Below, in pieces: positions 3,028 through 45,290 of a stretch of 47,063 nt of DNA; positions within the stretch are counted from its first letter, which is position 1, and each line of letters starts with the position of its first letter. The stretch is from an uncultured Elusimicrobium sp. (GTDB taxonomy: Bacteria; Elusimicrobiota; Elusimicrobia; Elusimicrobiales; Elusimicrobiaceae), in NCBI GenBank assembly GCA_947170005.1, contig CAMVRX010000001.1, positions 1-47,063 of the forward strand. The letters run 5' to 3'. The translations under genes and the position numbers were made by a program. The notes under the pieces were generated by a model. The model saw nothing but the letters and a program-made list of their open reading frames with translations, had not been told where the DNA came from and ran no database searches.

Positions 3028-3236
3028 AAAAACGGCTGTCCTCTATGAGCCTTCTCAAGTGTCTCAGCGACAACAGCCGCGGTCTCCCGTTTTTACACGG
3101 GAAACACTCGGTACAACCAGCTGTACGGGCCGGTTGTACCTCATATCGGCTGTCTTTGGACTTGAGAAGGATTTTGGGGTTTCCAAAATACATTCCGTAT
3201 ACTTTCTACACGGTTCCAAAAACAGATCAAATTGTC
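3028..3236 (-). ncRNA. Pilin leader attenuator-like structured RNA, copy E1
   Basis: acaatttgatctgtttttgga ... tccaaagacagccg ... cggctgtt ... gacagccg-ttttt; P1 ccttctcaagt/acttgagaagg; TAGAAT upstream. Confidence 0.75.
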
Positions 3237-3369
3237 TTTTTACGTCACCTTTATTCTACATAATTTCTGCCTAATTTGCACCGTTTTATGGAGTGGATGC
3301 TTTGCCTTTGCATTTGAAATTTCCGCGCGCGCGTTCTAAGAATATAGTAAAATGATAATAAGGATTTTT

Positions 3370-4077
3370 ATGAAACGCGGCTTATTTTTATTGGCAACCG
3401 TTACGCTTTCCTCGGCCCTGTACGGGCAAAGTATCCTCACGCGCGAACAGGCACGCGAGGTGTTTGCCGCGTATAACCCGGCACTTTTGGAAGCGGCCGC
3501 TCAAAACGAGCCGTTAAATCAGTTGCTGGAGCAGCTGCTTAGTACATATACCGGGCAAAACTTGCCCGATACGTTGGAAAACCGCTATACGCTTATTGCG
3601 CTGGCGCGTAATTTTGAAAATTCGTTAGCGCTTAACGCCGCGTTGGAGCAATATCAGCAAGCCCTTCTTTATTCGCAAGTGGGGGGGAACGTGCAAGAGG
3701 CCGCGTACGCGCATGCCCGAAGAGCAGTGGACGGGGTGTATCCGCGGATTTGGGCGGTCAGCGTGCAAGTAAAAGAAGATTTACTCAAACAATACAAAAC
3801 CCGCCGCCGGGCACTGCAAGCGGATGAAAATTTATCCGCACAAGATAAGAAAGCCCGGTTGGAAGAAGTAGATTTATCTATCCAAGCGCTGCAAGCGGAT
3901 TTAAAGCAATTAAATACCAATGTAGGGCCGCAACTGGTGCAACTGAGAAATGAGACCCTGGCGGAAGCACAAGAGCGGGTGCAGCAAGCGGTTTTGCAGC
4001 TGCGCAGCGCGCAAGAGGTGAAACAAACCGCCAATTTACAAGTGAAAACCAAACATAAAAAACCCGTGGCCGGGTAA
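3370..4077 (+). CDS. Hypothetical secreted helical/coiled-coil protein
   Basis: Long ORF; signal peptide from MKRGLF; AGGA upstream. Confidence 0.75.
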   Translation: MKRGLFLLATVTLSSALYGQSILTREQAREVFAAYNPALLEAAAQNEPLNQLLEQLLSTYTGQNLPDTLENRYTLIALARNFENSLALNAALEQYQQALLYSQVGGNVQEAAYAHARRAVDGVYPRIWAVSVQVKEDLLKQYKTRRRALQADENLSAQDKKARLEEVDLSIQALQADLKQLNTNVGPQLVQLRNETLAEAQERVQQAVLQLRSAQEVKQTANLQVKTKHKKPVAG

Positions 4078-4122
4078 GCGGTTTTTGGTTGTTTTACCCA
4101 TTTTACTTGAAAGGATTTTGAT

Positions 4123-6720
4123 ATGATACAAACTGTAATTAACAAAATTTTTGGAACGAAAAGCGAACGCGACTTAAAGAAAATTCAACACTATGTAGAC
4201 AAGGCTAACGCCTTGGCCCCGCAGATGGAAGCCTTAACCGACGACCAGCTCAAAGCCAAAACACAAGAGTTTAAAGACCGTTTGGCACAAGGCGAAACGC
4301 TGGATGATATTTTGCCGGAAGCCTTTGCCGTGGTGCGCGAGGCAGCTAAGCGTGTGATCGGTTTGCGGCCGTATGATGTGCAGCTTTTAGGCGGCATTGT
4401 GCTCCACCAGGGCAAAATTGCCGAGATGCGCACCGGGGAAGGGAAAACACTGGTAGCGGTGCTGCCTTCGTACCTAAACGCATTGACCGGCAAAGGGGTA
4501 CACGTAGTCACCGTGAACGATTACCTGGCCAAGCGTGACCGCCAGTGGATGGGCCCTATTCACGAATTTTTGGGTTTAACAGTGGGGTTTATCGGGCACG
4601 ATATGGAAAATACCGAGCGGCGTGAAATGTACCAAAAAGATATCACCTACGTAACCAATAACGAACTGGGGTTTGATTACCTGCGTGACAATATGGTGAT
4701 TAACCGCCAAGACCGCGTACTGCGGCCGCTTAATTACTGCATTGTGGACGAAGTAGACTCTATTTTGATTGACGAGGCCCGCACGCCGCTGATTATTTCC
4801 GGCCCGTCGGACCAAAGCACCGATAAATACTATATTGTCAACCGCTTAATCCCGTCTTTAAAAGTGCGCCTAATTACCGAGAAAGACGAAGTAAAAGCCA
4901 AGTATGAAGGCATTAACTTGGACGAAGGGGTGGACGCGATTATTGACGAAAAAGCCCACACCGCTACCCTAACGGACACCGGGATTGCCAAGGCGGAAAA
5001 GTTCTTGAATGTAACGAATTTGTATGATGATGTGCAATCGGAGTGGGTACACCACATTAACCAGGCCTTGCGCGCCCACCACCTCTACGAGCGCGATGTG
5101 GATTATGTGGTCAAAGACGGCGAGGTAGTGATTGTGGACGAATTTACCGGCCGCTTAATGCCCGGGCGCCGTTGGAGTGACGGCTTGCACCAGGCCGTGG
5201 AAGCGAAGGAAGGACTAGCGATTAAAGAAGAAAACCAGACGTTGGCAACCATCACGTTCCAAAACTTCTTCAAGCTGTATAACAAGCTTTCCGGCATGAC
5301 GGGGACGGCCATGACCGAGGCCAACGAGTTTTGGCAGATTTACAAACTGGATGTGGTGGAAATCCGTCCCAACCGGCCTTCCAAACGTATCGATCATCCG
5401 GATTTGGTGTACTTGACCGAGCGTGCCAAATTTAATGCCATTGTGCAAGAAGTGGAAGATTTATGGAAAAAAGGAGCCCCCGTACTGGTAGGTACGCGCA
5501 GTATTGAAAAATCCGAAAAACTCAGCCAAATGCTGCGCCAAAAAGGGATCCCGCACAAAGTATTAAATGCCAAATATCACGAGATGGAAGCCCAAATTAT
5601 CAGCCAAGCCGGGCGCAAAGGGGCGGTAACGATTGCCACCAACATGGCCGGGCGCGGAACGGATATTGTGCTGGGCGGCAACCCTGCCACGCAAGAAGAA
5701 CAAGATAGCGTAGTGGCGCTGGGCGGGCTGCATGTGATTGGCAGCGAACGGCACGAAAGCCGCCGTATTGATAACCAGCTGCGCGGTCGGTGCGCGCGCC
5801 AGGGGGACCCGGGGTCTTCGCGCTTTTACATTGCGCTGGATGACGAACTGATGCGCTTGTTTGCCAACTCGCAGAAAATAGCATCTATTTTGTCGCACGT
5901 GGGGATGCAAGAGGGGGAGGCGATTGAGTCGTTTATGCTGACCCGCCAAATTGAAGGAGCGCAGCGCATGGTGGAAGGGCGCAACTTTGATATCCGCAAA
6001 CAGCTCTTGGATTACGATAAAGTAATGAACCAGCAGCGCACGGCTATTTACGGCTTGCGTAACGCCATTTTGGATGGGGAAGATATGACGGAAAAATCCC
6101 ACCAGATGATGGAAGAAATCGTAGCGGAACTGGTGGAACAGTATTATCATCCTCAGCATCCGCAGCAAAGCGATTTTGGGGCCCTTAATGCCAATTTGCA
6201 CCGGTTTTTCCCGCTGCCTTTTGAACTGACCCCCCAAAGCGTGGGCAAGAAAACACACGAGCAATTAATTGCCCAAATTATGGATTCGGTCAAAGAGCTT
6301 TATGCGCAGCGTACGGCTTATTTTGCCGAGCAGGGCATCAATTTTGGGGAAATAGAACGGATGCTTTTGTTGCAAATTATTGACAGCGCCTGGAAACAAA
6401 ACCTCTATGAGCTGGACCAACTGCAAAACAGCGTCAGCTTGCGCGGTTATGCCCAAAAAGACCCGCTGATTGAGTACCAAAAAGAATCCTATAAGCTGTA
6501 CGAATCGATGATGAACCGCATCCGCGATTTGATGGTAAGTTATATCTTCCGCTTGCAATTGCCGCCGCGGCAAACGGCCGCCCAGCGTGCACAAGCGGCG
6601 GCTGCTAAAAACCCGCAAGCAGGCGAGCAAGCCCCGGTGCAAAAACGCATCGGCCGTAACGACCCGTGCCCTTGCGGAAGTGGGAAAAAATATAAGAAAT
6701 GTTGTGGAGCCAACCAATGA
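4123..6720 (+). CDS. secA: Preprotein translocase ATPase SecA
   Basis: MRTGEGKT, DEVDSILIDEARTPLIISG, SEC-C motif GRNDPCPCGSGKKYKKCC. Confidence 0.99.
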   Translation: MIQTVINKIFGTKSERDLKKIQHYVDKANALAPQMEALTDDQLKAKTQEFKDRLAQGETLDDILPEAFAVVREAAKRVIGLRPYDVQLLGGIVLHQGKIAEMRTGEGKTLVAVLPSYLNALTGKGVHVVTVNDYLAKRDRQWMGPIHEFLGLTVGFIGHDMENTERREMYQKDITYVTNNELGFDYLRDNMVINRQDRVLRPLNYCIVDEVDSILIDEARTPLIISGPSDQSTDKYYIVNRLIPSLKVRLITEKDEVKAKYEGINLDEGVDAIIDEKAHTATLTDTGIAKAEKFLNVTNLYDDVQSEWVHHINQALRAHHLYERDVDYVVKDGEVVIVDEFTGRLMPGRRWSDGLHQAVEAKEGLAIKEENQTLATITFQNFFKLYNKLSGMTGTAMTEANEFWQIYKLDVVEIRPNRPSKRIDHPDLVYLTERAKFNAIVQEVEDLWKKGAPVLVGTRSIEKSEKLSQMLRQKGIPHKVLNAKYHEMEAQIISQAGRKGAVTIATNMAGRGTDIVLGGNPATQEEQDSVVALGGLHVIGSERHESRRIDNQLRGRCARQGDPGSSRFYIALDDELMRLFANSQKIASILSHVGMQEGEAIESFMLTRQIEGAQRMVEGRNFDIRKQLLDYDKVMNQQRTAIYGLRNAILDGEDMTEKSHQMMEEIVAELVEQYYHPQHPQQSDFGALNANLHRFFPLPFELTPQSVGKKTHEQLIAQIMDSVKELYAQRTAYFAEQGINFGEIERMLLLQIIDSAWKQNLYELDQLQNSVSLRGYAQKDPLIEYQKESYKLYESMMNRIRDLMVSYIFRLQLPPRQTAAQRAQAAAAKNPQAGEQAPVQKRIGRNDPCPCGSGKKYKKCCGANQ

Positions 6721-44503: not shown

Positions 44504-44517
44504 TTTTCCTATAAAAA

Positions 44518-45084
44518 CTACCTAACTTTATATCTTTTTAAAGAAGAATCATAATATGTCAATTGACCACCAAGATCTTCACAAATTTCTTGGCTTATTT
44601 TTCTATCGGAACCAGCAAAACACCAAATTTCACCTGCTTTCATTTTTCCCACGCCTGATATAGTCGTATCTTTAAAAAAATGTAAATATGCAATTCTTTT
44701 CCCTCCAGATGGTTGATATTGTACATTAGAAAATGAATCACGAAGGCCAATTTGACCAAAATCACATTGATAATATGCCTCAATATAATTTTTTATTTTC
44801 TTACATGAATAATTTATTGGAGCTGTTATTTCTAATTCATCAATATCAGTTGCAAAAGTTCCATGCATGAGAAAATAAGACTGTTGCGCCTGAAATAAAC
44901 TTTCCACTAATAGCATACCTTTTTTCAACTGTACCTTTAAAATTGCTTTATTATAATGGGGCAAAGCAACTGCGGCCAATATACCAATAATCAAAACTAC
45001 TACCAGCAGTTCAAGCAAAGTAAAACCTAACTTGAGATTTTTATTTTTTTGTTCATTTTGGTTTATTTGTTTTTTGCTTTTCAT
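44518..45084 (-). CDS. Type IV pilin-like protein 8 (AT-rich, divergent leader peptide)
   Basis: [35 protein letters not shown]. Confidence 0.9.
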   Translation of the reverse strand: MKSKKQINQNEQKNKNLKLGFTLLELLVVVLIIGILAAVALPHYNKAILKVQLKKGMLLVESLFQAQQSYFLMHGTFATDIDELEITAPINYSCKKIKNYIEAYYQCDFGQIGLRDSFSNVQYQPSGGKRIAYLHFFKDTTISGVGKMKAGEIWCFAGSDRKISQEICEDLGGQLTYYDSSLKRYKVR

Positions 45085-45123
45085 ATCTTCTCCTTTGCTT
45101 TTTATTTTCAAAAATCGCCAAAT

Positions 45124-45290
45124 AAAAAGGCGATCTCATTTTAAGGATATTCGAACGCTTAAAACAAAATCGCCTTCATATCTGAAAGATATGAAAAACG
45201 ACTTCATTTTTAGCTCGAATATCGACTAACAAAAGTTAGTCCGTGCCGCTCTAAACGGCCCTAAAAATCAAGTCCATCAAAAATTTTGTA
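45124..45290 (-). ncRNA. Divergent pilin leader attenuator-like RNA, copy E8
   Basis: A:B gacttgatttttag/ctaaaaatgaagtc; P1 gatattcgagc/gttcgaatatc; terminator ggcgattttgttttaag...cttaaaatgagatcgcc-ttttt. Confidence 0.65.

Follow-up and report, generated by a model that had tools for sequence, protein, structure and literature searches.

A family of attenuator-like leader RNAs with self-complementary loops precedes pilin-like genes in Elusimicrobiaceae

The subject of this study is a family of leader RNAs upstream of pilin-like genes in a 47,063-nt stretch of DNA from an uncultured Elusimicrobium sp., a gut bacterium (contig CAMVRX010000001.1 of assembly GCA_947170005.1; here called the window, whose numbering is used for all positions given without a contig). 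Eight such genes lie in it, each behind a leader (E1–E8), and E1–E7 are members of type I, a leader of about 210 bases that precedes about 90 of the roughly 150 pilin-like genes of the source genome (1.07 Mb, 73% complete). Judged by its pairing pattern, type I is a leader-RNA family that combines a covarying lock (A:B) with a putative anti-terminator (X-B:C-Y-X′) and a U-tailed terminator (C-Y:Y′-D). The family is real, uncatalogued, restricted to the phylum and unlike any known attenuator class. It also carries a helix private to each gene and a variable hairpin loop that is constant only in its self-complementarity, which is the signature of a putative kissing homodimer. That these leaders are transcription attenuators controlled by their own RNA, whichever the sign of the effect, is in our judgement marginally probable; the narrower proposal, in which the input is another copy of the same RNA and the terminated product is the repressor, is put forward tentatively, its chances lying somewhat below even.

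From the 5′ end, type I leaders are arranged as −10 box, A, H1, H2, X, B, P3, junction, P4, C, Y, X′, Y′, D, U run, E and ribosome-binding site. An initial annotation of the window had read into them the attenuator logic of A pairing with B, B with C and C with D, and both pairing and folding over 241 copies agree with it. A and B pair in 95–100% of copies at 10 of 11 positions and in 69% at the last, B:C in 88–99% and C:D in 82–100% per position, and the base of the stem is paired in 92–99% for P3 and in 85–99% for P4. Stem sequences vary between copies while pairing is kept by G:U and compensatory changes, as had also been described; the one-base loss in both A and B of E6 is compensated and visible in the sequence, and further compensated A/B changes occur at C12:14892-15184 and C23:12254-12530. 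The terminator hairpin averages −20.2 ± 2.7 kcal/mol over the 92 copies of the genome, and in 91 of these the expected U run follows D, with 5–7 T in 8 bases. A simple terminator scan of 29500–45500, with a loop limit of 8 nt, called none of the leader hairpins. For E5, folding gave z = −6.2 at the terminated length and −10.5 at the read-through length relative to dinucleotide shuffles. A −10 box had been placed ahead of every leader, and a −10-like hexamer lies exactly 6 nt upstream of A in 51/92 copies, but the rest carry longer 5′ extensions; only this 6-nt peak was used, a loose count of −10 boxes within 55 nt (92/92) being uninformative.

The segments of E1–E7 were found where they had first been reported, after correction of strand, each before a prepilin open reading frame (ORF), but E8 proved to be of another type. 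Alignment of all eight leaders on the plus strand was misleading and was rejected, since E8 and four of the type I leaders lie on the minus strand. Nor does the single order of elements proposed for all eight extend to E8: it has neither P3 nor the GA(G/A)T junction, its A, B, C and D sequences are different, the type I profile misses it, and the covariance model gives it 19 bits against 132–175 for E1–E7, which are part of the model's training set. E8 represents type II, a sister family with 10 pilin-linked copies in the genome, which builds the lock, the X:X′ helix, the anti-terminator and the terminator known from type I out of other core sequences and in which a single hairpin replaces P3 and P4. 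Type II leaders (L182-L190; L193, L194, L197, L198, L201 and L202) also occur in two other genera, and their targets are pilin, lipoprotein, zinc-ribbon membrane and HTH genes; one copy is carried by the closed genome G043, which is of another genus.

A large pilE family is known from E. minutum. A six-frame motif search of the source genome, from which one false match was removed and which missed at least one gene, gave 147 pilin-like genes: 87 are preceded by type I leaders, 10 by type II and 26 by the poly-T promoter described below, while 13 lie at contig ends and 11 have none of these. An iterated profile search gave 92 full type I copies, of which 87 lie 45–367 nt from a same-strand pilin motif, four within 230 nt of a contig end, and one (L181:882-1097 (-), C23) before a 72-aa ORF. 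The last copy has compensated changes in A and B, and the apex of its P3 forms a perfect palindrome of 12 nt; the ORF, which has no domain and just one homologue other than itself, was dropped as a candidate regulator. B-like and A-like words elsewhere were likewise rejected as small RNAs, since they fell within coding sequence or unrelated DNA, or else belonged to the opposite strand of leaders. Among relatives, the covariance model matches 90 of 101 Elusimicrobiaceae genomes (49/51 of the same genus), with copy numbers from one upward, and in a phylum-wide sample of 121 it found 35/37 of Elusimicrobiaceae, 8/34 of one other family and none elsewhere. Where genomes bearing the sequence pattern have names, nearly all of these are Elusimicrobiaceae, Elusimicrobium or Ca. 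Avelusimicrobium. Linkage to pilins is close in the genome (87 of 88 evaluable copies) but is not exclusive: of 150 distinct leaders from relatives, 100 precede a pilin gene, 27 precede other genes and 23 are undecidable, the sequence being too short. These came from 158 loci (five lacked a full match and one leader was mis-parsed), 120 of which had been chosen by the pattern in A and B only. The non-pilin targets include GT8 glycosyltransferase, outer-membrane barrel, TM2, TRL, pyruvyl-transferase and lipoprotein genes.

The apex of P3 is self-complementary over at least 4 nt in 89 of the 92 copies. Where the P3 loop is open (at least 7 nt), it contains a palindrome in 70/70 cases, against 41% (maximum 59%) in shuffles, and one of 6 nt in 59/70 (shuffles 7.5%, maximum 19%); the open loops of relatives have palindromes in 128/128 and 6-mers in 106/128, with nulls of 49 and 8. 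Palindromes in the loops of H1, H2 and P4 of the 92 copies are at or below their shuffled nulls. There are 27 distinct words, such as TTATAA, TAATTA, TTCGAA, TTGCAA, TCATGA, AGCT, GATC, GGCC and CTGCAG. The palindrome mostly lies 2 nt from the 5′ strand of the stem and 1 nt from the 3′ strand, and its centre is half a base off the stem axis in 50/89 copies, which speaks against its being simply an extension of the stem; variants that tolerate G:U (TTGCAG, TAATTG, GGCT) fit pairing at the level of RNA. No cis partner of the loop was found, its palindrome recurring in the same leader in 2/70 cases against 4.6 expected, and the loop is unpaired with a probability of 0.90 in the nascent, terminated and read-through ensembles alike. 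In the second family the same loop words recur, and a palindrome is present in 19 of the 20 loci parsed out of 28, with one more by G:U, a partial set from which no rate is claimed.

The length of P3 is also quantised, at 30–33 nt (24 copies) or 38–43 nt (68 copies) with none between, and is exactly 41 nt in 110/150 relatives. The step of 5 bp per stem would amount to about one A-form turn per dimer, while A:B, X:X′ and the terminator (10 + 10 + 18 bp) would roughly span two long P3 stems and a kiss; together, the length match and the P3 step suggest a second contact across the dimer. Two further arguments were rejected: the extended-duplex energy of P3 (−9.3 kcal/mol against −0.1 for random pairs), as the P4 control self-dimerises too (−5.0, 92/92), and compensation of short P3 by a shorter terminator arm, where the difference of just 1.4 nt is too small for the P3 step.

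The gene-specific element is P1, the 10-bp helix X:X′, whose 3′ strand X′ is the terminator loop and covers C+20 to C+30 of the 47-nt terminator. Cognate X:X′ pairs average −15.5 kcal/mol and non-cognate pairs −4.1, the own partner being the best in 88/92 leaders. The relatives give −15.8 against −4.6, and 2/150 are mismatched (L041, G099 C210, and L097); these are possibly recombinants locked OFF, or assembly chimeras. G:U pairs make up 1.7% of X:X′ against 6–21% of the other helices. Between leaders that are 80–90% alike elsewhere, identity falls to 0.53 in X/X′ and 0.48 in the middle of the P3 stem, against 0.77–0.88 in the other helices (H1, H2, P4 and Y), so both diverge faster. Unrelated X′ are found in the paralogues L036/L206 and in the same-gene loci L206/L043, whose leaders are otherwise 93–96% identical (28 of 30 loci parsed, X′ strand used). 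The same small set of X/X′ words reappears ahead of different genes across genomes (L036-L057, L205-L227), which suggests that the address is exchanged as a block between copies.

Folding at increasing transcript lengths places A:B in 92/92 copies up to P4. Once X′ is complete, the fold of X:X′ with B:C is that of minimum energy in 90/92 copies and 144/149 relatives, contrary to the view that such leaders are OFF by default. It lies 14.2 kcal/mol below the locked fold, and the computed path has a barrier of 5.3; read-through is therefore predicted to be the default of the unassisted leader. At the terminated length, A:B plus the terminator (the OFF fold) is found in 70/92 copies and 126/149 relatives. 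Segment E, 3′ of the U run, pairs with A, and at the read-through length A:E is formed in 79/92 copies and an ON rod in 67–73 of 92 (103/149 relatives ON). Terminated and read-through RNAs are therefore predicted to take opposite folds, although they come from one leader. The probability that X is unpaired is 0.76 in the nascent, 0.61 in the terminated and 0.16 in the read-through RNA.

A different control element stands before the 26 pilin-like genes of the poly-T class, namely a promoter of the form TTGAC-N2-G-T11/12-(−10). Of the genome's T/A runs of at least 10, 28 of 30 lie in such promoters, which mostly have a 16-bp spacer, with T12 in 24/28. The pattern occurs in 50/101 genomes of the family, with no control matches, and in relatives the tracts are 11–15 long, with 24 of 30 sampled lying ahead of pilins. 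T tracts inside promoters are switches of slipped-strand phase variation, which is the likely role of these as well. Leader and poly-T tract never occur on the same gene in the classification of the 147 genes; since the control classes are exclusive and the targets are surface genes, it is suggested that the leader does the same job, switching surface traits gene by gene.

With these elements, a self-referential attenuator can be outlined. The released terminated RNA would take the OFF fold and so expose X, X′ and the P3 loop, whereas the read-through RNA would be a rod closed by A:E, in which X and X′ are buried and the P3 loop alone is exposed. The terminated RNA would dock on a nascent copy through a P3–P3 kiss, and only if it came from the same gene could its X′ loop clamp the nascent X. 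With X clamped the anti-terminator would remain incomplete, the terminator would form, and more terminated RNA would be produced, while read-through RNA would be unable to repress. Either state, OFF or ON, would in this way perpetuate itself, separately for each gene, as an epigenetic counterpart of the phase-variable poly-T promoters. The dimer in vivo, the trans X:X′ contact and the memory are all inferred steps, and their fullest form, a heritable, RNA-only phase variation of about 90 genes with a two-part address (palindrome class plus private 10-mer) and products that template their own state, should be regarded as doubtful.

Several observations weigh against the proposal that terminated RNA represses its own gene. 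Type II has the same core switch with no palindromic loop, and the kiss is therefore not needed for the core switch; three type I copies of the genome also lack a palindrome, and the 68 long-class palindromes are weak as plain duplexes (−2.8 kcal/mol). A:E is stronger than −10 kcal/mol in only 69/92 copies and 89/150 relatives, and in the second family segment E is weak (−8.9 against −6.5 when shuffled). The divergence test rests on related, non-independent pairs, and avoidance of similar X among genes with the same palindrome is not significant (1 against 4.4 expected at −10 kcal/mol, P = 0.06), with no effect at thresholds of −7 to −9. All energies are nearest-neighbour estimates that exclude pseudoknots, pauses and the polymerase. 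No Hfq or ProQ, which might assist strand exchange, was found in four near-complete relatives. The single RNA run (X1; share 0.22) consists of low-depth contigs that show no transcript ends, one of which spans a pilin start into an E-like segment and is possibly of DNA origin. Finally, if two terminated RNAs form a stable symmetric dimer, this may be a dead end and no memory, and the sign of the symmetric contact may be reversed.

Another explanation is that the shared parts A, H1 and H2 are bound by a protein, or by a small RNA common to all leaders, which controls them jointly; the kiss would then serve another end, for instance to cluster or protect mRNAs. Segment A is conserved at 95–100%, above its partner B, H1 and H2 are kept in both leader types, and type II works without P3, all of which would suit a shared ligand. 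Searches for known types of protein found a single NusG and no LoaP/RfaH-type paralogue in 4/4 near-complete relatives and the CAT domain of BglG/SacY (CAT_RBD) in 0/5 genomes; a common regulator would leave the private, fast-changing, G:U-free X code unexplained. We consider it rather unlikely.

The same contact may instead act with the opposite sign, termination being the default and a docked RNA, terminated or read-through, donating its X-B as a trans anti-terminator, much as a natural small transcription-activating RNA would; this would give a threshold or positive feedback. The evidence from the palindromes, P3 length and the X code applies equally to this scheme. It gains from the read-through RNA in which A is held by E and the terminator is formed, where X-B is free, at 3.3 kcal/mol below the A:B fold (68/92). 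By the usual promoter rules a 16-bp spacer suggests a mostly silent gene, and the spacers of the poly-T promoters (24/28) point to mostly silent pilins. Yet the cis anti-terminator is predicted to win at the X′ stage (90/92; barrier about 5 kcal/mol), X-B is buried in the read-through RNA (0.16), and in a kissing, non-extended dimer the partner's B would lie about 40 bp from the nascent C, so that this sign of control seems unlikely.

It is again unlikely, and a little more so, that the leader is a kinetic folding switch acting only in cis, with no input, a fixed small fraction of polymerases passing and X drifting neutrally. At the terminated length the ON and OFF folds are separated by 3.0 ± 3.8 kcal/mol, as such a switch might require, and the fixed distances from C to X′ and from X to B follow from a cis anti-terminator. 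It does not account for the palindromes, the absent cis partner or the quantised length of P3, nor for segment E, because that is transcribed after the decision.

It is improbable that the leader is a small-molecule riboswitch of a new class, with c-di-GMP as one conceivable ligand and the three-way junction of B:C, P3 and P4 as its aptamer. Riboswitches for c-di-GMP control pilin genes elsewhere, and GGDEF proteins number 2–4 per genome in 5/5 genomes. The junction has two near-invariant adenines (97% and 100% in 241 copies), but its other bases are conserved at just 52–84%, these two are its only conserved unpaired bases and type II has no such junction, which weakens the riboswitch idea of the initial annotation. 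The statement that the leaders fit no known class has held: Rfam 15 gave no gathering-score match in the window (best E 0.13, in 2900–13200) and only E of at least 1 on 20 leader loci, with no riboswitch or T-box match to the leaders even at E 10. No diadenylate cyclase was found in 5/5 genomes, and the gene-specific X and variable palindromes would be without a role.

Least probable, and largely refuted, are a DNA element (a miniature transposon or an invertible segment bounded by A and E) and a leader-peptide attenuator like that of Streptococcus gallolyticus pil1: A and E, at either end, do form inverted repeats, X:X′ has the same stability on the antisense strand, and pil1 shows pilus phase variation through attenuation (excerpts of PMC3894217), but all 87 pilin-linked copies have one orientation, only 1/88 evaluable copies lies away from a pilin, A:E has 16% G:U, every helix except X:X′ favours the sense strand, and no conserved upstream ORF was found in the 92 copies (no start codon after A in 48, scattered stops, Shine–Dalgarno sequence plus start in 13).

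Among known systems, trp-type attenuators and riboswitch expression platforms have in common with these leaders a mutually exclusive lock, an anti-terminator and a U-tailed terminator. The leaders differ from them, and from T-boxes, in having no leader peptide, known aptamer or T-box, and in their approximately 90 copies per genome, private X:X′ and a segment E that re-pairs with A. The c-di-GMP-I/II, ydaO and T-box RNAs are likewise 5′ leaders with terminators, some of them before pilin or surface genes, but the leaders do not match their Rfam models. In the attenuators of pT181 and pIP501, a separate counter-transcript binds the nascent leader by loop contacts and blocks the anti-terminator, and no palindrome is needed. 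They would be alike if a second RNA binds the nascent leader here, whereas a self-complementary loop points to a sense–sense homodimer. Palindromic kissing homodimers are known from HIV-1 DIS and oskar (excerpts of PMC7357161), and in the umbravirus PEMV2 a palindromic kiss of variable sequence controls termination, the dimer triggering premature termination (excerpts of PMC10484742). As described in these excerpts, PEMV2 and HIV-1 DIS also have a hairpin loop with a palindrome of 6 nt, kept by covariation, with loop flanks and stem length being important, but the genomes are of viral RNA, the polymerase is RNA-dependent, each genome has a single element, and there is neither an intrinsic terminator nor an address helix. 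In pil1, a leader terminator likewise makes pilus expression heterogeneous, but there, according to the excerpts of PMC3894217, the drivers are the ribosome and slippage of a repeat within a leader peptide, and type I leaders have no conserved upstream ORF or repeat tract. Titles and abstract openings retrieved by a literature search contained no description of this leader RNA or of a bacterial attenuator signalled by its own RNA. The main texts of four RNA-motif surveys (PMC8632094, PMC8040213, PMC2965389 and PMC11109978), searched by term, named no Elusimicrobia or pilin motif, and 6 of the 8 supplements of PMC8040213 had no match for Elusimicrobia or the A motif.

The features of the window are collected in Table 1. 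By folding, the loop palindrome of E1 is the 4-nt GTAC, where the automated caller chose the adjacent GGCC, and E2 and E7 have no clear segment E. The domain N_methyl (PF07963) was present in all three pilins scanned of the eight, and the motif FTLxEL in 8/8. The remainder of the window is housekeeping (SecA, SMC, PheT, HPF, amidase), with the pilin cassettes sitting between operons, and includes tRNA genes at 32330-32400 (-) and 44119-44190 (+). An extra small hairpin lies 5′ of A in L036, L037, L039, L043, L058, E2 and E7, and some of these hairpins have palindromic loops with the same words as P3. Prepilin signal peptides carry in-frame insertions of repeated DNA, frequently after a duplicated GFT, at 12728-12824 (-), 34264-34321 (+), 38787-38841 (+) and on many other contigs; similar repeats are also intergenic, and the insertions resemble coding repeat elements. 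At pilin starts the genome has 26 occurrences of a fixed, near-palindromic DNA word of 14 bases that encodes NTRRGF (in the window at 2956, 12809, 24580, 30309, 34279, 38802 and 43654); this word is a possible target of insertion or recombination.

Table 1. Leaders, their segments and the adjoining pilin-like genes of the window, with examples of poly-T promoters from elsewhere.
Feature	Position	Strand	Basis or remarks
E1, type I leader	3021..3236	-	covariance model, folding
E1 short P3; X; X′	3140-3110; 3170-3160; 3060-3050	-	folding
E1 segment E	2995..3025	-	complement of A; duplex energy -17.0 kcal/mol
Pilin-like gene after E1	2459..2971	-	ORF and domain scan; N_methyl
E2, type I leader	12852..13078	-
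E2 P3; palindrome TTGCAA	12983-12945; 12967-12962	-
Pilin-like gene after E2	12243..12824	-	start back-counted from motif position; coding repeat inserted within signal peptide
E3, type I leader	24324..24536	+	covariance model, folding
E3 palindrome TAATTA; X; X′	24430-24435; 24384-24391; 24499-24506	+
Pilin-like gene after E3	24565..25098	+
E4, type I leader	30366..30580	-	short P3
E4 palindrome CTATAG	30472-30467	-
Pilin-like gene after E4	29815..30324	-
E5, type I leader	34005..34214	+	covariance model, folding
E5 A; X; B; P3	34006-34027; 34057-34065; 34067-34079; 34085-34125	+
E5 palindrome TTCGAA	34103-34108	+	P3 loop
E5 C; X′; D; U run	from 34155; 34176-34184; to 34202; 34203-34207	+
E5 segment E	34210..34238	+	A:E duplex -21.0 kcal/mol in read-through RNA
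Pilin-like gene after E5	34264..34755	+	N_methyl
E6, type I leader	38552..38749	+	short P3; compensated A/B deletion
E6 palindrome GGCC	38651-38654	+
Pilin-like gene after E6	38787..39326	+
E7, type I leader	43697..43922	-
E7 palindrome TTATAA	43811-43806	-
Pilin-like gene after E7	43187..43669	-
E8, type II leader	45116..45288	-	X:X′ helix; one hairpin replacing P3 and P4; no palindromic loop
Pilin-like gene after E8	44518..45084	-	N_methyl; Pilin_GH under cut-off
Poly-T promoters (28 in total)	outside window, e.g. C11:6682, C21:2281, C45:3089	+	in relatives, L230-L259

The leader may bear on how one bacterium chooses among about 150 pilin-like genes. Even if the dimer turns out to be secondary, what has been found is an uncatalogued leader family of precise and testable design. 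If the attenuator does respond to its own RNA, it would be a new class of gene control, with self-recognition and memory in RNA, and would supply, as a natural library, orthogonal toehold or kissing-loop transcription switches by the hundred; in the fullest form of the proposal, the cell would remember which pilins it expresses without a change of DNA or a regulatory protein.

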